Source: a virus
Lineage: Duplodnaviria; Caudoviricetes
Virus record (IMG/VR): IMGVR_UViG_3300005323_000042
Location: 17,433-81,432 of that record
Strand: one strand, 5' to 3'
Length of the DNA: 64,000 nucleotides
Below the pieces are notes generated by a model. That model ran no database searches and had not been told where the DNA came from. It was given only the letters and a program-made list of their open reading frames with translations. A program made the translations under genes and the position numbers. Positions 4,833-58,197 of the stretch are shown piece after piece (position 1 is the stretch's first letter; each line of letters begins with the position of its first letter).

Positions 4833-7800
4833 TTATCTAGACCAGGAATTGTATTTCTCTTCTTTATTAAGATTATTGATATGTTCTTCATCGGCAGATT
4901 GGTTTCGGTTAATGAAAGTATTCTGATTAATAAATCCCATTTTACCTAACTGCATTCTGATTGTCTGTGCATTACTGGAAACCGGAACAGTACCACGTAT
5001 ACTGTGTTTGAAACCTGTGCCTCTCGGCTGATACACGGCGCCTGTTGGCGGATCAATTGCTTCTGCGCCCTGTGGAATCTGTTTTTGTGATTCTTCACGT
5101 ACTTCCTGTTGCTGCATGGCATTATCTCTTGGTCGCAAGAGATAACCGGCAGCCAAAGCTCCACCCGCGATAAGTTGAAATGTTCTGTTCTTTAAAACCC
5201 TTGGAGCCGTCTCGGCAATCACATCACCAAGAGTATTGGATGTTCTGCGGAATGAATTGTCTACAGGCGTTATATCGTGCAGTGCGTTTACCTGGGCATT
5301 ACTTATCGGTATAGACCCGATATCATTCATCCGCCCATGAATCCTGTTTACCTGATCGACATTATGAACCTGTTTGGTAGCATATTTTAAATAATCTGCA
5401 TAATCAATTTTGACTTTATCTCCGGACTTTAACCAGTTCTTAACATCATCTATCGTCGTAAAGTCATTGAATATATTACCTAATTTTCCATTGAATTCAA
5501 CATCAAGGGCGCCACGTTCACCGGGAAGATGCTCGTTCATCTTTGCAGTGTACTGCATAAACTTTTCGGCCCTGTTCTCAAGCTTTCCTGAAGCAGAGTC
5601 AAAAACACTAAGATAGTCAGCTGCATCCACTTCGTTTGTGAAGAGTTTACCGCCGATAAACATTTCAGGAGTCGACACTGCCATATGGTCAAAAGCCCGT
5701 GCTTTTTCCCAGACTCCTATTCCGGTATTATCAAAAGCCTCTGCGAGTTTTGAATTGAAACGCATCGAATATGGATATGTTTCATTATATCCTTTTGCAA
5801 TGTTTCCGGACTCAGTAAAGGCAGATTCAATATAACTCGATATATTCTTGCTCATTCCTTTGACTGTTGACTTTTTGTTCAGGTATGTCTGTCTTATAAG
5901 TGGAACGGCAACAGAGTCGGATTCCTCGATCATCTTTGCGCGCAATGCTTCACTCTTTGGTGTCAGTCCAAGCACAGGATCAAAATCCTTGTCAAGCATT
6001 GCTTTAGACTGTACGGGATCACTTACATGTACGGTAAGATCGTCTATAGCCCCATGAACAATCGACCGAACATTTTCATCATATACACCGCCGCTTGTCA
6101 TCATAAGATCTTTCATAAGCGCTTCTTCATCTATTGCCCTGGCAACAGTAACACCCTCTGTTCCGTAGGCGGGATGTCTTGTTACAACTTGTGGAATACC
6201 CTTACGCATAGCTGTCTCGCGCAACTCTGCGCCCTGCAACCCGCCTTTTTTAAGTTGTTCATACAATTCTGTCTGTTCAAGTATCTGTGTGAAATTCTTA
6301 CTTGAGTATCCGGCAAGATCTTTATTCACAACACTGTCTATTGTAAGTCCATATCTGGAAAGTGTTTTCTGTACGGCGCCCGGAGAACCCTCCTTGGCTA
6401 TAAGCGTTTCAAGAAGGCCCTTATCAAATACACCTCTGCCGCGATAAACTTTCATTGTCGCATCTGACATTGCAGAAGTTAAATTAACATGTTGACCAAG
6501 AACATTAACCCACGACTGCTTAAGGTCGTTATATAATTCTTGCTGACCATCCCATCCTTTGGAAGCGGCCATCAGATAATCACGCGTGGTTTTTGAAAGT
6601 AGTTTTCTTATTGGTTCATCCTGAGATGCAAAGCCTTTATTGCTTACAATGTTTGTCCAGTGAGATTCTGTTGTAGAGAGGGGAACATTATTGCCATTGA
6701 TAGTGGTATAAAATGCGGCATTGTCAGGAATAGGTTTGTTTTTCCATTCAGTCATACCCTGAGCTATCTGCATCGCTCTGTTTCTTGCAACCTTTGTACT
6801 GGTTGATGTAAGTTCTTCAATTGTTTCTGTGCCGCTGATGTCCGCCCAATTAAGCTTAATATGTCGTCCCTCAATAGGCTTATTAAGAACCGGCATAAAC
6901 TCATTGTATAATTCATGCATTACCTTCTTATTATAATTAAAATGACTACGCACGAAATCTGCAGCAGCATTCTGTTTTGATACACTCAGTGTATTTTCCA
7001 GAATTGAGTTTACCTGCACTTTATTGGATGGATCAATACCCATCAGTATTGGACTCTTGTCGGTTGTATAAATATCAGTATTTATACTTGCCATACCGCC
7101 TGTCTTCTGTTCGTCTTCACTTAGCAATCTCATATAAGGTGCAAGGGCAGGATTTTTTTCTGCAGATGCTAAAGTTTCAGCGTTGGTCAAAGACCGTATA
7201 CGGTTAAAACTATCGCCACCTTTTCTTATGCCTTCCTTCAGAACCCTAAAATCACTATCAAGCATTGTATTTAGTTCTTTATGGAATTCCGGTCTTACTG
7301 TTTTATGTTTGCTTATCATATTATCAAGCATTTCGGTTGCGCGGGCAGCTGCAACCTTGTTTTTGCTTGATGTTGTATTTATTAATTTTATTGCCGACTC
7401 TGCATTAATATCACCGGACTGTATTACATCTTCGAGCACCATTCTGGCAGTAACGAGTCTTCTCATATGTTCCTGTCTTAACCGCATTGAATAGATTGAT
7501 TTAACAGTGCCCCAGTTTTTACCAACCATCCCAACTTTACTTCTGAATGTAGTATCAAGTCTGATACCTTCGTTTGTCAAAGAAATATCGTTCAGCAATA
7601 CCCTTCCTCGTCCGACCCGAACTTTGCCGGTAGTTGTTTCGAGAATAGTGCCATTATCAAACATATCCTTTAGCGCTATGCCATTCTTGAAACCTCTTGC
7701 ATCCGAATACTGCTGAAGAATTTCCGGCATATTGCCCTGGCGTATCATGTATTTAAGTTTTTGTCCGCGTGTAGCATTTGCAGCAAGCGAAGCATGAGAC

Positions 7801-9196: not shown

Positions 9197-12100
9197 TTAA
9201 TAGTGAAACAATCCCATATCGCGCATTTTCTCGCGTATATCTTTCTTATTATTTTGCTTACCTTGAAAGTCTATAACAGAAGATCCTCTTATGGGAGTAG
9301 AAATTATCCTGGCATCATGCATACCAAGGTTTGTAAGATAATTCTGTATATCATTTTTCGAAGTTATTGAACTGGAACTGGGAACAGGTGTTGGCATATC
9401 TCCGTAAAGATCTGTCGTTGCGTCGAGTATTTGTGCCTGCCGTTCGTCTTGCCGCCAGAGATCAAAGTCACGAATATTCTTGCCAAGATTATTGGCTACC
9501 TTAACTTTGAAAGCATTGAGATTAACGTCGGGAGCGTAACCTATAAAATTTCTATCAGGTACATTATTTCCGAGTACAACCGGTTCCGTAGTAGTTTGAA
9601 CAGGCGCCATATTGCTTTCTAATTGTTTTGCAACATCCAGATCATGCATTGTCATTGCATCACTGTGTGCCCAGTGGGCATTTAACACCTGTGCTGTCTG
9701 AGGATTAATTGTTTGTAATATCTGACTGCGTTTATCAGTTTCTGTTTCGCCTGCAAAAGCAGCGAAGAATCTTTGTTCTCTTTTTGGAAGCAGACCAATT
9801 GCATTGGATATATTGGCCAACGGGTTAGAACCCTCAAGTGCCGCACGCTTACCGGACCTGTAATATGCCGCGGCTTCAAACTCGCCTTGCTCGGATGCGA
9901 CATTGGCTTTTTCCTCAAGTAGTCTGTTTTTCGCAAATTGCATTGCCGAAAAGTAACTGTCCAGTTCCGCATTTTCTGCAGTTTCCTTTGGAATAAAATT
10001 ACCAAAGGTAAGGATGTTCATTGTTTTATTGATGGCAGGTTTAATAAAATCCTTGTAAGGATGTTCCCATGATTTAAATGATTTGTCGAGCAATACCATA
10101 GATTTATATTCTGTCATAGGATCTACCGGACCTGAAAACTTGTGCATAGGTGCAATTGGATAGAGAGATTCTGTCGGAAGCATTCTGCCTGCTTTCTTTA
10201 CGGCAAGCCAATAAGCACCGAGTGGACCGCTGCCGGTATCGAATCTTGTATCATTTTTTACTTCCTCTTCTCTGCGTAAGGTTTCCTGGTAGAGATTCAC
10301 ACCGGCCTGATTAAGCTGGTTATTTATTATCTGACTTTCAACTGCGTTTCTGAACATATGATATTCAGCAGAATACGGGGCAACATCGGAAAGAATCTGC
10401 ATTTTATGTACAGCAGGGTAGTCGTCTGGATTCAATCCGCTCAGGTAAGGATACAAAGTTTCATAACCTCTACCAGGCAATCTCAATTCACCATTTTCAA
10501 TAATCGAGAAAGGGTCACCGTACTTAAGATCTTCACGTCCTATCCATTCGGGCATTTTGTTTCTGATAGCTGCATGAACATATTCGGTATCATAATCTCT
10601 GTCTGGGTTTAATCTTCTATACCATTCGTTTAATCCGGCCAGATCTCCAACGTTCTGATCCCAATAAGAACGTTGTGCAGACATGATTCTACCGGAAGAT
10701 TCATAACGCATGGAAGGAATTATGAACGATTGTCCACTAGCCATCGTATCTTTGACAGACCTTAATGCAAAACCCTGTAAGCCAAAGGTATCAGTCAATG
10801 ATTTGCCAAGTTCAGATGCATAGCCCTGAACAGTTGACGGGGAAGTAATCGTCGGATAAATTCCCTTTGTACTTATTGCATCGATTCCATTTATAGATTC
10901 CGGTATATCCGCTGTAATCTGTGGCTCCTGTGCCGGATGTAATTTGCCGGCTGTCTCCGGATGTGCAAGAACAGTTGGCTTCAATACCTGCTTTAAAGGA
11001 CTGAATAGTTTTTCGGGTAACCCTGCACCATAGTCTGTTGGCCCCCAGTAAGCATAAGGCCGTTCCTCATCAAGCGCACGTTCCATATAATATGGATCAA
11101 ACAATCTTTTTATAAAACGCTTAACAGGTTTATTATAATATTCTTCAGGCATGATGCCTTTTTCACGGGCGTCAGTTTTTGCCCGGACAGTCCAATGCGG
11201 TTGATAATAATCTATTTCTCCGCCTTCAAACGGAGTATTACCCATAGTCCAGAACCGTCCTCTGCGGACAGGTATCCATTCTTCACCATGATAAATTTTA
11301 TTAAGTTCTTCGGGCGTCTTATTGGATCCAAGGGAACCAAGCAAGAATGGAGTAATGACAGCAGCGCCAATTGCAGCACCGGTCATGGCGAACGCGCCAA
11401 CACGACCTTTGCCGGTAAGATTAGCAAGACGTGCCGCTTTGCCGGAGATACCACCTAAACTTTCTGCCTTATAAGCAAAATCAAAGAACCATTTTGGTGC
11501 GGCCATTTTTCCATTCAATGGCGCCCTGCCGACATTAGACAGTCCTGCAATAGTACCGCCTGCAATAGCGCCGGTCAGTAGCACCGCAAGAAGCCCCGTA
11601 AACTTATGTGTACCAGGAGCTTTCTCTTCCTGGTATTTATTCAGAGCAGTAAGTCCTGTTTTCTCAGAGACATGGGAATATAATTTTGTTACATCCTGGT
11701 AAGCCTGTGCGGCTATACCTTTTGCATCAGTACCAAGGACTGATTTTAATACTGCATTACTTATTTTCCATGCAGCTATACCGGCAATGATTTTTGGGAA
11801 TCCATGTGTAATATGGCGTTTCCATAATCTTGCTGTATTACCACGAAGATAATTTGCACCACCTACACCAAGCTGGTCGCGAAAATATTTATTGTATAAC
11901 GATCCGACTTTCTTAAATGTTCTTCCACCAAGACCCTGGTCAGCTTCAAGTGCCCGGTACCACTTGGTCTTTGACAGGTTGCCGAATAACTCCATAGGGT
12001 TATCAAGCAAGCGCATATAATTTTGTGTTGCAACAGTTGTCCATGCAGAAGCGGTTTCGCCGAATGCCCGAAGTTTTGATGTACCACCGGTTATTACAAA

Positions 12101-12703
12101 ATCACTGTCAGGAATATGCAGATTATATTGTTCATATAATGCTTTGGTAAACCTCGACATTCTGTTTCCGGGACCGGTTTTGCCCGGGACGACTTTTGCA
12201 TATTTGAGCAATATATCGTCAATTCCGGATTGGTTCTGATAAAGGAGTTTGCCATTCTGAAAACGCATTCTGCCGGATTGCAGATGCGCATTAGTAATTT
12301 TTCCACCGGAAATCTGCTTTAAGTAATCGCCTTGTTTGGTAAGCCACTCTGGTTTCAGATTGATGGCAAGATTAGAATAAACCCTGGCGCCGTATATACT
12401 CGATGCAGAAAATGCGCGCGGCATTTTGAATAACTGTTCTTCGGCAACAGCCATTGCATTCCATATCAGATCTCTTACAGTTGCAGTCTTTGCGGTACGG
12501 TATGTGTGCCAAACGTCGCCGTTGATAGTAAACTTATCTGCATACCGGAGTTTTGTAATATCTATCTTTGTTGGAATCTTACCAAGAACATAATTCAAAC
12601 CAACAACAGCAGCACCCTTCCAGGCCATAGATATGGTTGTCTCGAAGGGTGACTTTTTGTAAGACTCGTTCTGTGAAGAATATGTGGCGTTTTTAAGATT
12701 CAA
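9197..12703 (-). CDS. Probable tail tape measure / large virion protein (1168 aa)
   Basis: Lies directly downstream of a tail-chaperone-like gene. Has Gly/Ala-rich hydrophobic segments. Assignment rests on synteny. Confidence 0.5.
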   Translation of the reverse strand: MNLKNATYSSQNESYKKSPFETTISMAWKGAAVVGLNYVLGKIPTKIDITKLRYADKFTINGDVWHTYRTAKTATVRDLIWNAMAVAEEQLFKMPRAFSASSIYGARVYSNLAINLKPEWLTKQGDYLKQISGGKITNAHLQSGRMRFQNGKLLYQNQSGIDDILLKYAKVVPGKTGPGNRMSRFTKALYEQYNLHIPDSDFVITGGTSKLRAFGETASAWTTVATQNYMRLLDNPMELFGNLSKTKWYRALEADQGLGGRTFKKVGSLYNKYFRDQLGVGGANYLRGNTARLWKRHITHGFPKIIAGIAAWKISNAVLKSVLGTDAKGIAAQAYQDVTKLYSHVSEKTGLTALNKYQEEKAPGTHKFTGLLAVLLTGAIAGGTIAGLSNVGRAPLNGKMAAPKWFFDFAYKAESLGGISGKAARLANLTGKGRVGAFAMTGAAIGAAVITPFLLGSLGSNKTPEELNKIYHGEEWIPVRRGRFWTMGNTPFEGGEIDYYQPHWTVRAKTDAREKGIMPEEYYNKPVKRFIKRLFDPYYMERALDEERPYAYWGPTDYGAGLPEKLFSPLKQVLKPTVLAHPETAGKLHPAQEPQITADIPESINGIDAISTKGIYPTITSPSTVQGYASELGKSLTDTFGLQGFALRSVKDTMASGQSFIIPSMRYESSGRIMSAQRSYWDQNVGDLAGLNEWYRRLNPDRDYDTEYVHAAIRNKMPEWIGREDLKYGDPFSIIENGELRLPGRGYETLYPYLSGLNPDDYPAVHKMQILSDVAPYSAEYHMFRNAVESQIINNQLNQAGVNLYQETLRREEEVKNDTRFDTGSGPLGAYWLAVKKAGRMLPTESLYPIAPMHKFSGPVDPMTEYKSMVLLDKSFKSWEHPYKDFIKPAINKTMNILTFGNFIPKETAENAELDSYFSAMQFAKNRLLEEKANVASEQGEFEAAAYYRSGKRAALEGSNPLANISNAIGLLPKREQRFFAAFAGETETDKRSQILQTINPQTAQVLNAHWAHSDAMTMHDLDVAKQLESNMAPVQTTTEPVVLGNNVPDRNFIGYAPDVNLNAFKVKVANNLGKNIRDFDLWRQDERQAQILDATTDLYGDMPTPVPSSSSITSKNDIQNYLTNLGMHDARIISTPIRGSSVIDFQGKQNNKKDIREKMRDMGLFHY

Positions 12704-51483: not shown

Positions 51484-54114
51484 ATGTTATATTCAATTTG
51501 GGCTCTTTTAACATTGCTCTTAGTAAGTCCTTCAATAGAGAAGGCAAAAGAGCTTCTCGTTATTGTTCACAATGGATATCTAGGTAAAAGCATCAGATTA
51601 TACTGGTATTATATCAGCATAGATGCTGTAGACAAGGCTAAGGAGATAATCCAAAAGCTAAATCATAATACAATCATTAGACAGATAATAAATCACAGCA
51701 AACTGGTAGAAGATTTACCGGTTGTTGTGGCTTATGATAATAAATACAGGCCAATCTGGTATTTATCGAAGAGAAAAGCGTACACGCAAACCATAATAGA
51801 TAAGGATGGAAATGAGGTAAAGGTTACGATTCCGCCAGTCTATCAAAGACCACAACTATTTCCGGAAGTTCTGGAAATGGTATGGAACATCATCGAGAAA
51901 GGAAAGAATATTGGGCAATCAGTCGGCATTAATTGGACCGACAAGAAAGGCCGGAAAAGATATAATACAATCGTATTGAAACCAGAAGAAAAGATCACGG
52001 TGAAAAGCCGTGAGTATATGTTAATTGCCAGTGGTAAAAATAAGACCTTCTACTGGCCAACAGATGTTCCGATTCCTTCTGAATTGAAACCTTGGATTGA
52101 ATCTAAAAACATTCAGTCCAAGAATGATTTTGTAGCTGGCCTGAAAAGGCATGGCCACACAGAATACATCAAAGACATTGATATTACTGTTCAGGAAGAA
52201 CATCAGTTCGATCTTGGAGCTGTAGTACTTCCAAGAGAGGTAGTTAAACAACTGTCGAAGAGATTTGGATTCGATGTGAATCTATCTCAAATCACTATAT
52301 GGTTCGAAGACGGAACATTCTTTAAGGGGACTGTTGAGTCCGATGAGTTCTCGAAAATGCCGGTTGGCTATTATGGTGGATTAAAATCCGCCATTAGCAA
52401 ATATGATGGTAAAAATAAGGTAAAGGCGCTAAAAATCGGCGCAAGAGCGATTAGAATGAACGTATTGTCTAATTATAGAGTGCAACCCTGGGAGGCAACC
52501 GCAAATCATCAGCAATTCACCTATACTGGCAATAAAATGCCAGTTGTAGTTGAACCGGTTAACAATGAGTTACTTGCAAAAATATGTCTTGGTGAGCCGG
52601 GCATCACTATGCAAGCCCAACAAGAATTCTTGTCCAATATCTCACGTGCTTTACATAAATTTAATGTATCTGGCTATGCGGGCCAGATTGGTGCATATTG
52701 CGATACGTCCTCTGCAAACTTTATTATCTTCACAAGCGACCGTAAACTCAAGAATCAGATCAAAGAATTCACATTTCTTTGGTCGCCATTCTTACCAGTG
52801 CATACTGACCTTATGAAGGTGCTGGTGAAATTTATGTATAAACCAGATTACGATGGTGTGATCTGTTTGAACACAAATGAACAAAATATGGAATGGATAG
52901 ATAGATGGTTTATCCAATACGCAGGTCGTGACTGCGACGGTGATGGGATTGTGATTACTGATGATCCAAGAATCATATCGCTTGCAAAGAATGTACCTGA
53001 GATTCAGTGGTACAACACAGTGCAATTCAAAGGCGAAACGCCAGTTGACTGTACTAATAGCCATCTTGCATTAATGATGTCTTATAGTAACATAATTCTA
53101 CATTCAGGAATCGTCGGAACATTCGACAACTTTGCCAGAAGAATAATAACCGAGAGGCCAGCACTTATGACCTGGGAATTAAGAGTAAGACTAACCAAGA
53201 TCATACAAATGGGTATAAGTTCGGTCAAGAAACACGTTGACGATGAGGATTTAAATAATCCGTTTATCATTTATAAGATTCTTGGTCTTGACTATAAGAC
53301 TAATGAATGGCTCAGGAAGTCAACAATAGATTTCAAAAAAGAAGTCGTTGAGGTTGTAAAGAAACTGAATGGAACAGTGCAGAAATTAATGTTCATTAAG
53401 GAAGGACAAGATCCTGAAGTGTTCAAATTAGAAATAACTGAACTCTATCAAAACCTACACGAAAAGTTGGATAAAATTGAACTAGCCGATCCAAAAGCAG
53501 TTAAGGCTTTCACCTCTGCGGTGGAAGCGGCGCAGGAGTTCACTTGCGAACGTTCTGCATACTTCAACATGAAAAATATCGGCAAGTCATTATTGGCAGA
53601 AGCAAAAGCTGTTGACATCTTGGCAGCAGAAATATTGCTAGCTGAGATCAAAGATCTCTGGTACAGAAAAGACGATGAATCTCAATCTATTGCCGAGGAA
53701 ATCGGCTTAGATTTCAATGAAATCAAAGACTTAATAGAATACCAGATAGAAACATCAGAGATAGAACCAAGAGCTTTATTTGGTGTTCTCTTATCAAATC
53801 TATCTTCAAGATTTCTTACCTCTATCATTTCAATGGAGCAAATGCTTCAACTTGATAGATTATCAGGACAGAATATGTACTGCTCATATTCCATTCCTGT
53901 TAAGAATAACACATTGCATGTTGGGCAGAGATTAACATTCGGCCAACTGTCAGCAAGAGTTCCAATGTCTCAGTTGTTGGCAGAAATGCCAATTTGTGAT
54001 TATTTGATTAAAGACATTAAGCAGGCTCAATATTACAATTGGGCCAGCAAAACAGGTAATATTCAGCAGTCAAATTATCTGTTGAAACTAGTACCTGTAT
54101 TGGACAATAATTAA
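51484..54114 (+). CDS. YonO/RdRP-like single-subunit two-barrel RNA polymerase (876 aa)
   Basis: Catalytic AGRDCDGD at 52921-52944. FDLGAVV...SQI...FKG upstream. GVICLN before the motif and ITDDPRII after it. Downstream GTFDNFA...QMGISSVKK matches the order of RdRP-family motifs. Confidence 0.7.
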   Translation: MLYSIWALLTLLLVSPSIEKAKELLVIVHNGYLGKSIRLYWYYISIDAVDKAKEIIQKLNHNTIIRQIINHSKLVEDLPVVVAYDNKYRPIWYLSKRKAYTQTIIDKDGNEVKVTIPPVYQRPQLFPEVLEMVWNIIEKGKNIGQSVGINWTDKKGRKRYNTIVLKPEEKITVKSREYMLIASGKNKTFYWPTDVPIPSELKPWIESKNIQSKNDFVAGLKRHGHTEYIKDIDITVQEEHQFDLGAVVLPREVVKQLSKRFGFDVNLSQITIWFEDGTFFKGTVESDEFSKMPVGYYGGLKSAISKYDGKNKVKALKIGARAIRMNVLSNYRVQPWEATANHQQFTYTGNKMPVVVEPVNNELLAKICLGEPGITMQAQQEFLSNISRALHKFNVSGYAGQIGAYCDTSSANFIIFTSDRKLKNQIKEFTFLWSPFLPVHTDLMKVLVKFMYKPDYDGVICLNTNEQNMEWIDRWFIQYAGRDCDGDGIVITDDPRIISLAKNVPEIQWYNTVQFKGETPVDCTNSHLALMMSYSNIILHSGIVGTFDNFARRIITERPALMTWELRVRLTKIIQMGISSVKKHVDDEDLNNPFIIYKILGLDYKTNEWLRKSTIDFKKEVVEVVKKLNGTVQKLMFIKEGQDPEVFKLEITELYQNLHEKLDKIELADPKAVKAFTSAVEAAQEFTCERSAYFNMKNIGKSLLAEAKAVDILAAEILLAEIKDLWYRKDDESQSIAEEIGLDFNEIKDLIEYQIETSEIEPRALFGVLLSNLSSRFLTSIISMEQMLQLDRLSGQNMYCSYSIPVKNNTLHVGQRLTFGQLSARVPMSQLLAEMPICDYLIKDIKQAQYYNWASKTGNIQQSNYLLKLVPVLDNN

Positions 54115-55197: not shown

Positions 55198-56499
55198 ATG
55201 GATATTAAAGAAACATTAAAAATCTTCTCATTCCTGCCGGCTGTTCATGCAGTCGGCGGATGTGTCCGCGATTGGCTTATGGATATTCCATACCATGACA
55301 TTGATCTTGCAACAGCGGCAAAACCGGAAGAAGTTATCAGTTTATGTACCGAACACGACATCGGTACAGTCAATACTGGAATAAAATCCGGCACTATTAC
55401 CGCTTATGTTGATGGTATTGGCTACGAAATAACAACGTTCCGTTCTGACCATAATCAGGATGGGAGGCATGCTGATGTTAATTATGTTTCCACTATTGAA
55501 GAAGACCTGGCACGCAGAGATTTTACAATCAATGCAATAGCAATAGATACTGACGGTAATGTCATTGATCCTTATGGCGGGGTCAATGATATAGCGTTCT
55601 TTAAGAGAATCAGGGCAGTCAGAGATCCAATCCAGAGATTCAGAGAAGACTATCTCAGAACTCTCAGAGCTGCACGATTTGCCGCAAGATTCGGATTCAG
55701 GATAGACCCAAGAACACTAAATGCCATGACATGTTTATCATGGCGGATTCAGAAGTTTGTTTCTCCAGAACGGGTAAAAATGGAGTTCGATAAGGCTTTT
55801 CAGGACAGCCACCCCGACAAGTTTATCGATATACTATTCAAAACAAGAATTCTACAACAGATATTTCCTGAATATTCTACAGCAGATAGACTCACCCACA
55901 ACCACGAATATCATCCTGAAGGGCCGTTACTTGAACACATAAAAGTTGTAGTCTGTCGTGCCGTTCCAGAATGCAGATGGGAAGCATTTCTGCATGACAT
56001 TGGGAAAACTATTACGTTCAACCAGAGTGTAAATGGTGAATACTACAATTACTATGACCACGCTGAAATCGGTGAGGTATTGGTAAACGATATTGCAGAC
56101 AGATTAAAATTTAGCAACATACTTAGAGCCTCTTGTGTTGCAGCAACGAAATACCACATGATGCCGGCTATGATAATGAATGCCGATTGTAAACACGAAA
56201 GAGCAATCAGAAGATTTCAGAATATTGCTGGAGAATATTTGGATATGTTGCATCGTCTCTGCTACGCAGACTTAATAGATAGAAAGTCATACGACAAAGA
56301 ACTATTCGACAAAATCTTTACACCACTACAACCTAAACCGAAACCAATAGTATCTGGCAAACAAATCCTCGCAAGAGGATATAAACCAGGACCAGAGATT
56401 GGCAAAATTCAACGCATCTGTCAACAGTATTACATAGAAACAGGCATTGATGATCCCGGGATTTTACTTGATGCAGTTATAAGTGGCAATTTAAATTGA
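55198..56499 (+). CDS. cca: CCA-adding tRNA nucleotidyltransferase with an HD domain
   Basis: VGGCVRD, DIDLAT, EITTFR, DLARRDFTINA, EDYLR.LRAARFAAR and LHDIGK motifs. Confidence 0.9.
   Translation: MDIKETLKIFSFLPAVHAVGGCVRDWLMDIPYHDIDLATAAKPEEVISLCTEHDIGTVNTGIKSGTITAYVDGIGYEITTFRSDHNQDGRHADVNYVSTIEEDLARRDFTINAIAIDTDGNVIDPYGGVNDIAFFKRIRAVRDPIQRFREDYLRTLRAARFAARFGFRIDPRTLNAMTCLSWRIQKFVSPERVKMEFDKAFQDSHPDKFIDILFKTRILQQIFPEYSTADRLTHNHEYHPEGPLLEHIKVVVCRAVPECRWEAFLHDIGKTITFNQSVNGEYYNYYDHAEIGEVLVNDIADRLKFSNILRASCVAATKYHMMPAMIMNADCKHERAIRRFQNIAGEYLDMLHRLCYADLIDRKSYDKELFDKIFTPLQPKPKPIVSGKQILARGYKPGPEIGKIQRICQQYYIETGIDDPGILLDAVISGNLN
56487..56498. promoter_or_regulatory. Operator candidate CAATTTAAATTG at the end of cca
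   Basis: Perfect palindrome overlapping TTGACA, at the start of the non-coding region. Confidence 0.6.
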
Positions 56500-56569
56500 C
56501 AGACTTTAAACTGATCAGACATTATTTTTAGACCTACCAAAAATTACAACATTCTAAGCTTCCACATAT

Positions 56570-57710
56570 TCAACTCCGCTCCGTTTCCGGGTCTTCGGAA
56601 ACTGCCGGGGTCTTCCGGCAAAGCAGTAGACTGCTTGGAGCTTCGTCTGGTCTTGGTCTGGTCAGGTCTGTCCACGGGCGATTGATTGCTGTTATCCAGA
56701 ATGGCAATCCGCTGACACCGTAGATGTCTTTACTCCTATAATTTATCATTACAGGCTCCGTCCCCACCGTGGCATCCCTATGTCACATATGTGAGCCAGA
56801 AGAATTAAAGGGAGCACTCCCACAGTCAGTCAATGACGTGTGCTCCTTATTCCTCTTTGGTCAGGTCGGGTCTGCCAAGGGGTGAAAGTCGGATTGGCGA
56901 CTATAAATAGTGCATCAGGCCAATCGCGTTGACATTTGTCAGGTTGCAATGCTCAACGTTGCAGGTTCTGCGGAGAACCCAAAAGTCCGAGCCAGCCGTA
57001 ACAAAGCAGGGATGGTGTTCAACTTAAATTGTTGTCAAAACAGGCCATCGAAGACCTACATTCTATTACCCTATTACGGTTTCTTCTTGTAAGTGTAAAA
57101 AGACTGGATAGACAGATGTGAAAACACCATCTGCGGTCAGGTAAGACAGAGAGCCTGACCTTGAAAATAAGAACGACTGTCAGTACTTCACTGTTGCTAT
57201 GTCCCTTGAGCAAGGAATGCAAATGCAGTGATTAAAGATATGAAATTCAAGGAAGGAAAAGTTTATCCATATCGGCGAAGTCCCTTAACGAACACCGGGT
57301 ATGACACCCTGGCTATTAGGCGCAGTAATGAACGGCGCGTTCCCAGAACAAGTAGATTCTACGAATGTAATGCGGTGTATGTGACTAATACATTATAGGC
57401 ATTCGTGCGGAGACTGTACCTAAAAATTCAGTTGGCGGGTTCACTGCCAGTAAAGTGTTGAACACTCTAATAGCAGGAGTGAGTATGTTATGCATTGAAA
57501 ACTTAGTAGCAATGCGATCACGGCGAAAAGCGTTAAAGCTATCCATTGTGGTATGCCAAGACCTAACAGCACAGCAATAAGACTGTTAGCGAGCGATTAC
57601 AATGACGATAAGGTGGCTCTTAAGGTGCAAATACAGCACCCGTCGGGCAACGGACTATGAGTTTTTGTCTTGTTTACGAGAACCGGCACGCCCCGATTTG
57701 ATTCCAAATG
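56570..57710 (+). ncRNA. Hairpin-dense, apparently non-coding region (candidate large structured RNA and/or origin)
   Basis: More than 15 short stems visible by eye, raised GC and no convincing ORFs. The strand is tentative. Confidence 0.4.
57020..57031. promoter_or_regulatory. Operator candidate CAACTTAAATTG (reverse complement of the 51386 copy)
   Basis: One mismatch from the perfect palindrome; adjacent to TTGACA on the minus strand. Confidence 0.5.
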
Positions 57711-57716
57711 ATTATA

Positions 57717-57861
57717 ACCGATACCTCTGCGGCGCGAAAGTTTTGACCTATTATTTACCAGACCCAATAAGGCAGCACGCCTGAACAGTCTGGATAAGAA
57801 CGGCCAAACCTGCCGCAGGGGATACGGATTTAAGAGAGTTCGAATCTCTCTATCGGTCCCA
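57717..57861 (+). ncRNA. 145-nt tRNA-like RNA (acceptor stem, T-arm and CCA; a long rod replaces the D and anticodon arms)
   Basis: ACCGATA/TATCGGT 7-bp stem, GAGAG-TTCGAAT-CTCTC T-arm, then C-CCA. Inner CCTCTGCGGC/GCCGCAGGGG and CCAGAC/GTCTGG helices. Confidence 0.7.
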
Positions 57862-57879
57862 ACTAAATATGGGCATTTT

Positions 57880-58197
57880 ATGTCTATTAATAGTCTCATT
57901 GTAAGGTTTCCAATCTGCGAAGAATTAAACAATTTCAGAATTAGTCCCGAAGTTGCAAAAGAAGTTTTAATACAATCAAAAAAAGGAGATGATCTCTCTA
58001 TTATTCCTTGCTTTGGCAGGGAAGAACGGACCCTTGCAATAGATTCATATTGCAGAATCGGCAAGATTCCTAACCAAAACAAGTACCTCATCGTAATGGA
58101 TGATGGATGGCACATCGAATGGTGGAAACACTGGCAAAAAAGACTTGCCTGCATACTTGCTGACTATGTGGAAAGCAAACTAAATCCATCATCTTAA
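57880..58197 (+). CDS. Hypothetical protein
   Basis: Intact ORF co-oriented with the early region. Confidence 0.6.
   Translation: MSINSLIVRFPICEELNNFRISPEVAKEVLIQSKKGDDLSIIPCFGREERTLAIDSYCRIGKIPNQNKYLIVMDDGWHIEWWKHWQKRLACILADYVESKLNPSS

Follow-up and report, generated by a model that had tools for sequence, protein, structure and literature searches.

A 145-nt element on the plus strand (57717–57861), read directly from the sequence, is confirmed as a tRNA mimic without an anticodon arm; it is statistically non-random, and its phage context is unusual. Judging from its anatomy and position, it is tentatively attributed to an RNA processing signal, i.e. a mimic of RNase P and CCA-enzyme substrates that would punctuate a long leader transcript; we favour this reading at somewhat less than an even chance. 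The element lies in a 64,000-nt stretch of viral DNA (the window), which belongs to an 81.4-kb IMG/VR virus record with an estimated completeness of 61% (CheckV). The record is that of a myovirus, with terminase, portal, major head and tail-sheath genes and a GC content of 37.5%. Feature coordinates are collected in Table 1.

Table 1. Features of the element, its surroundings in the window, and counterparts on two related phage contigs (L212 and L219).
Feature	Coordinates	Strand	Basis or detail
876-aa protein with GRDCDGDG motif	51484-54114	+	no Pfam or PHROG match
CCA-adding tRNA nucleotidyltransferase gene, phage	55198..56499	+	PHROG 2244 at 1e-73; Pfam
Sigma-70-like promoter, TTGACA, 18 nt, CATTAT	56496..56525	+	promoter scan, 10/12 matches; consensus match only
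ORF-free leader/ncRNA region, ~1.38 kb, closed by the element	56500..57879	+	ORF lists; stops of all three kinds in six frames
Pistol self-cleaving ribozyme, 770 nt upstream of the element, same gap	56887..56948	+	Rfam RF02679
Acceptor stem 5' strand, ACCGAUA	57717..57723	+	sequence reading and folds
Rod, 98 nt, in place of D and anticodon arms	57724..57821	+	MFE and centroid folds
Single-stranded linker ATACGGATTTAA (= AUACGGAUUUAA), 12 nt, with GG	57822..57833	+	unpaired in all folds
T-arm, 5-bp stem GAGAG/CUCUC, canonical T-loop UUCGAAU	57834..57850	+	sequence and fold
Acceptor stem 3' strand UAUCGGU, then discriminator C and genomically encoded CCA	57851..57861	+	sequence reading
First downstream ORF, 105 aa, no family	57880..58197	+	ATG 19 nt after CCA
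Rod-less 49-nt analogue	L212 6254-6302		closing stem UCCCUGU/ACAGGGA, 7 bp
Twister-like (twister-P5-like) ribozyme candidate closing the L219 gap	L219 5939-5996	+	31.5 bits; gathering score 37.6

The tRNA-like half of the element, described in a preliminary description as a perfect acceptor stem, a canonical T-arm and a C followed by CCA, can be read directly from the sequence in every part. The acceptor stem consists of 7 bp without mismatch, ACCGATA (57717–57723) pairing with TATCGGT (57851–57857), and the 3' tail comprises C at 57858 and CCA at 57859–57861. A motif scan of the 81-kb record returned this T-arm and acceptor as the sole strict match to the combination. The long rod and the GG-containing linker, proposed to take the place of D and anticodon arms, are likewise borne out by the sequence and the folds. 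The basal helix of the rod, CCTCTGCGGC/GCCGCAGGGG, has 10 bp (nine Watson–Crick and one G·U) and is flush with the acceptor stem. Above it, internal loops lead to a 4+6-bp helix that includes CCAGAC/GTCTGG, and the tip is a 4-bp hairpin, AGGC/GCCT, with the 5-nt loop AGCAC. The GTTT/AAAC helix is ambiguous in register, with UUUG/CAAA, shifted by one, as the alternative. The GG of the linker may take the role of a D-loop and touch the T-loop at the elbow; a similar placement of GG is seen in a linker of L212 (6261–6273). The 3:70 pair is C:G, confirming that the G3–U70 identity of alanine is absent, the discriminator is C73, and position −1 is A. This combination matches no acceptor-only aminoacylation identity set known to us, and nothing speaks for the suggested aminoacylated adaptor.

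RNAfold assigns the element a free energy of −50.5 kcal/mol (z = −3.92), and none of the 200 shuffled sequences was as stable. The explicit tRNA-like drawing lies only 0.4 kcal/mol above the MFE, and the element domain remains the MFE structure inside a 381-nt context. The geometry of the junction was controlled by holding the T-arm and the 3' strand fixed while the upstream sequence was shuffled (n = 20,000). By chance, 7.7% of the shuffled upstream sequences closed the acceptor stem; closure together with a flush rod helix of at least 8 bp ending 6–18 nt before the T-arm occurred in 1 of the 20,000 shuffles. The fold z-score, the persistence of the fold in context and this last result together argue that the element is real and not a chance product.

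Compared with the tRNA family (RF00005), the element has the 7-bp acceptor stem and the 5-bp T-arm with its T-loop, while sequence and folds contain neither a D-arm nor an anticodon arm with a 7-nt loop. The rod directly abuts the acceptor stem, its terminal loop has 5 nt, and no strand of the element is complementary to ACGGA, the segment preceding the variable position. The element was expected to fail as a standard tRNA, and it did: ARAGORN called 0 tRNAs or tmRNAs in the window and 0 in the whole 81-kb record, it returned 0 genes for the element region with introns of 0–300 nt allowed or with the threshold lowered to 80%, and Rfam gave no tRNA or tmRNA match to the element even at E ≤ 10. 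An ordinary or intron-containing tRNA is excluded by these results. A tmRNA is excluded by the C:G pair at 3:70, the length of 145 nt, and the lack of a standard or permuted ARAGORN call and of an Rfam match; the element also has no tag reading frame and no pseudoknots. Structure and statistics therefore agree with the original assignment to an anticodon-less mimic distinct from both classes. The tRNA-like domain of tmRNA does resemble the element in its acceptor stem, T-arm, 3' CCA, missing anticodon arm and long helix (P2) leaving the junction. However, tmRNA measures ~350 nt and carries G3:U70, a tag frame and pseudoknots, and the single-stranded linker lies on the 3' side of the rod in the element, not on the 5' side as in tmRNA.

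A Y-RNA-like role had been suggested as well and finds no support here. YrlA, a non-coding bacterial Y RNA, combines a T-arm with a D-loop-like partner to imitate the elbow of a tRNA, and it lacks an anticodon (PMC4201824). Its topology is the reverse of that of the element: YrlA begins and ends in the Ro60-binding stem, and its acceptor-like stem is closed, whereas the ends of the element lie at the acceptor stem. Moreover, the 81-kb record, itself a fragment, contains neither a TROVE (PF05731, Ro60) gene nor an RtcB gene. An attP site carrying a host tRNA 3' fragment was also considered. The 5' strand of the acceptor stem is present, so that the element is self-contained, no integrase (PF00589) is encoded in the 81-kb record, and the 24-nt T-arm and acceptor 3' strand matches none of 185,579 species reference genomes exactly; this candidate was discarded. 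A protein gene hidden by a recoded stop is excluded, as all six frames of 56500–57880 hold many TAA, TAG and TGA codons. Metagenome annotators call a minus-strand ORF of 185 aa (57597–58154) that overlaps both the RNA element and the 105-aa plus-strand ORF. The translation of the former is rich in Cys, Leu, Arg and Ser, junk-like and spurious-looking, and the call was rejected; that of the 105-aa ORF is protein-like.

The genomic context, which the preliminary description did not use, places the element at the end of a non-coding leader with a GC content of 46% vs 37.5% for the genome. Immediately upstream of this ORF-free gap, which measures 1,381 bases up to the next ORF, lies the CCA-enzyme gene, whose product has head, RNA-binding and HD domains. 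Its Pfam matches are PolyA_pol, PolyA_pol_RNAbd and HD (weak and below cutoff), and its best NCBIfam matches are CCA-enzyme models, below their cutoffs. The CCA-enzyme gene is preceded by an RNase H gene and the gene of the 876-aa protein. This protein resembles a two-barrel or YonO-type RNA polymerase and has only 15 representatives among 1.84 billion proteins; some of its relatives are found in integrative elements beside Gam, DUF932, DNA pol A or BREX genes. Between the polymerase-like gene and RNase H lies a 114-aa gene, which is tandemly duplicated in a metagenome copy of the same phage (L123, 4638–5328).

The leader transcript probably starts from the sigma-70-like promoter at the beginning of the gap, a site recognised by its match to the consensus. 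The palindrome CAATTTAAATTG (56487–56498) overlaps the −35 hexamer of this promoter. A one-mismatch copy of CAATTTAAATTG is found at ~57020, in the leader downstream of the Pistol ribozyme and beside TTGTCA and TACATT hexamers, and may mark a second, internal promoter under the same control. The promoter scan revealed no promoter-like site from which an RNA could begin at 57717, and the sequence past CCA shows neither a terminator nor another 3'-end signal. Lacking its own promoter and terminator, the element would have to acquire its 5' end by processing, and transcription would continue into the genes downstream.

The Pistol ribozyme scores 49.5 bits, above its gathering score of 34.5. In an alignment with the Rfam consensus linker, the predicted scissile G–U lies at 56943/56944, which we take to correspond to the cleavage position of published pistol biochemistry. 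Just past the predicted cut, 56945–56963 can form a 7-bp hairpin that re-uses the 3' strand of Pistol P2; this hairpin may lock the cleaved state. The region from 56943 to 57716 (plus strand) does not fold with unusual stability (z = −0.96), a result that argues in neither direction. The presence of Pistol in the same gap indicates that RNA-based processing is already a feature of the leader transcript, and a leader with Pistol, a neighbouring CCA-enzyme gene and an ORF following at 19 nt suggests RNA processing as the role of the element, too.

No sequence homologue of the element was found by any search made. Seven contigs with the CCA-enzyme gene (six places shown) represent one and the same phage; those that reach the ORF-free gap all share it at 100% identity, leaving no covariation signal. 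Searching GenBank phages with 2.5 kb by blastn gave nothing useful, and two- and three-motif DNA patterns retrieved only ordinary tRNAs, att fragments and noise from IMG/VR. At 80 other phage CCA-enzyme loci, a custom descriptor and a covariance model (R1) detected only normal or long-variable-arm tRNAs; the nearest homologues of the CCA enzyme itself, at ~44% identity, are cellular genes. The terminase and the polymerase-like protein provided no useful homologue lead in IMG/VR and GenBank phages, the 17 metagenome loci with relatives of the polymerase-like protein are mostly integrative elements lacking such RNAs, and nothing useful was found in more distant relatives (L215–L218).

Two distantly related phage contigs, L212 (13.8 kb) and L219 (197.7 kb), are linked to the window by the 876-aa protein and shared gene order. 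In L212, a rod-less analogue closes a 740-nt ORF-free region 36 nt before a gene. Its 13-nt linker carries GGG, spaced from the T-arm like the GG in the element; the T-arm reads GUGG-UUCGAAU-CCAC, and the tail, CCCAAC, is the same as that of the element. Relative to the element, 5 of the 7 acceptor pairs and 3 of the 5 T-stem pairs differ on both sides with pairing kept. The covariance-model score of 13 bits equals that of background matches in coding DNA, RNAfold favours an alternative extended hairpin by 3.1 kcal/mol, and the analogue is no more than a candidate homologue of the element in the window. Two further L212 segments (11708–11758 and 12076–12121, both +) came from a pairing-based scan; they lie in ORF-free regions, combine a 7-bp closing stem with an internal hairpin, and are enriched over background (P about 1e-5). 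Their T-loops are non-canonical, and they were rejected as tRNA mimics.

In L219, a syntenic ORF-free gap of 1.1 kb follows RNase H and ends with the twister-like ribozyme candidate, which is below the gathering score (E = 6.5e-5 locally) and lies 28 nt before the next gene. In these related phages a tRNA mimic and a self-cleaving ribozyme thus appear to occupy equivalent positions, which supports a processing role for the element. The large gaps of the three phages share only 9–14-mers, i.e. similarity at chance level, and their homology is accordingly one of position. The CCA-enzyme gene of the L219/L220 phage lies ~5 kb from the gap, so its adjacency is not conserved. In L220 (10001–11749 and 13174–15680), the CCA enzyme is fused to an AAA_33 kinase-like domain and is found near Metallophos and RlaP genes, a neighbourhood that, by its gene content, looks like a tRNA-end or RNA-repair module. 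L219 also encodes two real tRNAs ~1.2 kb downstream of the matching gap. One of these (7161–7234, +) scores 52 bits in Rfam and has an irregular anticodon arm, with a CCCC/GGGG stem around the loop CUACUAA; the ARAGORN call is tRNA-???, with an anticodon of two bases, and it could be a suppressor or quadruplet-type tRNA.

An acceptor/T-arm stack, a T-loop elbow and an RCCA tail are the features read by RNase P, 3'-end maturation and CCA-adding enzymes, and both RNase P and CCA enzymes act well on acceptor/T-arm minihelices with a 3' RCCA. The element would offer these enzymes the "top half" of a tRNA: a coaxial acceptor/T-arm stack of 12 bp, the T-loop, the GG linker as a stand-in for the D-loop, and CCA. 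According to the proposed scheme, it would be transcribed as the last part of a leader of ~1.35 kb starting near 56530. Pistol would cleave itself at ~56943/56944, and host RNase P would cut at its predicted site between 57716 and 57717. The two predicted cuts would detach an ncRNA of ~770 nt from the early-gene mRNA that follows. The mimic could then either be trimmed to a free 145-nt RNA ending in CCA, which the phage CCA enzyme could maintain, or be retained on the mRNA as a flush, structured 5' end.

In favour of processing we count a build that tRNA enzymes can read, the location at the end of an ORF-free gap, Pistol, the counterparts in L212 and L219, and the CCA-enzyme neighbour. Against it we count that the rod of 98 nt exceeds the need of a plain signal, suggesting an additional or different function. 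The L212 analogue with its alternative hairpin and background-level score, the variable location of the CCA-enzyme gene and the positional homology of the gaps also weigh on that side.

tRNA mimics serving as processing signals are known from mascRNA (MALAT1, MEN-beta/NEAT1) and from plant mitochondrial t-elements, where a tRNA-like structure ends a long transcript and recruits RNase P and RNase Z. Such signals fix where RNAs end, and a small tRNA-like RNA with a CCA tail can result; the known cases are eukaryotic or organellar. By analogy, we infer that the element works like a processing signal of the mascRNA or t-element type, and like these it is found where a long transcript meets the next functional unit, 19 nt before an ORF. 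In contrast to the element, mascRNA is a 61-nt cloverleaf with an anticodon-like arm. A further difference is that cleavage of the element is a prediction and that Pistol would generate the 5' end of the ncRNA. An extended version of the processing scheme describes a phage counterpart of MALAT1/mascRNA built of RNA catalysts: the ~770-nt ncRNA would owe its 5' end to Pistol and its 3' end to RNase P, and the 145-nt mimic would be a stable RNA whose CCA end is kept by the CCA enzyme of the phage, the rod exerting a second function, e.g. titrating host factors that attack tRNA acceptor ends. We place this extended version on the unlikely side.

The closest known object is RNA C of phage T4 (species 1 RNA), a real and abundant phage RNA of unknown function (PMC3014915, PMC9697503). 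For comparison, the annotated 139-nt rnaC (AF158101, 70908–71046) was folded and set beside the element. Both RNAs are phage-encoded, similar in length (139 vs 145 nt), and built with long hairpins that replace other tRNA arms, and neither is recognised as a tRNA. RNA C carries a canonical T-arm, CCGGG-UUCGAAU-CCCGG, next to an acceptor-like closing stem, and the T-loop UUCGAAU is the same in the element. Conversely, RNA C has two extra arms where the element has one rod, its closing stem contains two U·U mismatches whereas the acceptor stem of the element is perfect, and the annotated record includes no encoded CCA. RNA C is located inside a tRNA gene cluster, whereas the record of the element is devoid of any tRNA gene. 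In the covariance-model comparison, the score reaches 15.5 bits via the T-arm alone, with no other sequence similarity, and no Rfam family exists for RNA C.

As the 98-nt rod is more than a signal needs, a stable RNA acting in trans is kept as the main rival to the processing signal. The element would then be a free 145-nt tRNA-like small RNA operating via its acceptor/CCA end and the rod, either as a decoy or sponge that draws off host factors directed at the 3' ends or elbows of tRNAs (among them acceptor-end toxins of the MenT, CapRel or AbiE type) or as the ligand of a phage protein, and processing would merely be its route of production. Taken together, these variants are considered unlikely. 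Size and build akin to those of RNA C speak for them, as do the encoded CCA and elaborate rod, both beyond the requirements of a cleavage signal, and the adjoining phage CCA-repair enzyme with its HD domain; the kinase-fused CCA enzyme of the relative, near Metallophos and RlaP, hints at a conflict over tRNA ends. A trans-acting RNA is at odds, however, with the missing promoter and terminator, and the rod-less L212 analogue has no effector-like part. The anticodon-nuclease decoy put forward in the preliminary description is disfavoured in particular: with its 5-nt loop AGCAC on a 4-bp stem, the tip of the rod offers no 7-nt loop of the anticodon type, making this particular function unlikely.

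Two other readings have to be weighed. The element might have no RNA function and derive from a decayed phage tRNA gene, an att-type tRNA 3' fragment or chance stems, which we regard as improbable. Such a reading would fit the single phage genotype with its 100% identical gap copies and the frequent occurrence of partial tRNA 3' halves as attachment sites in viral contigs, and the two real tRNAs ~1.2 kb past the L219 gap make a tRNA ancestor plausible. This reading is difficult to reconcile with 12 of 12 perfect acceptor and T-stem pairs, a canonical T-loop and an intact CCA, or with the stability (z = −3.9) and the flush 10-bp rod helix, a geometry met once in 20,000 shuffles. It is further disfavoured by the lack of an integrase in the 81-kb record and of an exact genome match to the 24-nt strand, by the presence of the 5' strand and by the analogous element in L212. 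More improbable still is a 3'-terminal tRNA-like structure of a long ncRNA of ~918 nt that extends from the Pistol cut at ~56944 to the CCA at 57861 and is left uncut by RNase P. Akin to the 3' tRNA-like structures of plant RNA viruses, its CCA end would be kept by the phage CCA enzyme and protect the RNA from 3' exonucleases. The encoded CCA at the very end of the ORF-free region, the upstream Pistol site on the same strand and the adjacent CCA-enzyme gene would suit this arrangement. Still, bacterial RNase P is known to cleave readily any accessible acceptor/T-arm stack bearing a 5' leader, and escape from it would require special protection. Neither a terminator nor a 3'-end signal is present past CCA, and the matching place in L219 is held by a ribozyme candidate, not by a tRNA-like structure.

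tRNA mimicry is well known in RNA viruses, tmRNA, Y RNAs and the processing of eukaryotic lncRNAs. For DNA phages, RNA C and RNA D of T4 are, to our knowledge, the only long-known case, unexplained after ~50 years. The element is a clean, minimal example in which the half of the tRNA that serves processing and 3'-end enzymes is kept and the decoding half is dropped, and its context is telling: around it are found the CCA enzyme of the phage, a ribozyme that cleaves itself, a leader that is long and structured, and an operon of early genes. Should the free RNA act in trans, it could represent an anti-defence decoy of a new kind. If the phage counterpart of MALAT1/mascRNA proves true, it would give pistol ribozymes and RNAs of the T4 RNA C type their first biological role. 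If the element is processed as proposed, phages would use RNase P punctuation and small ribozymes interchangeably to shape their non-coding transcripts, and the system would offer a tractable handle on the roles of pistol and twister ribozymes in phages.
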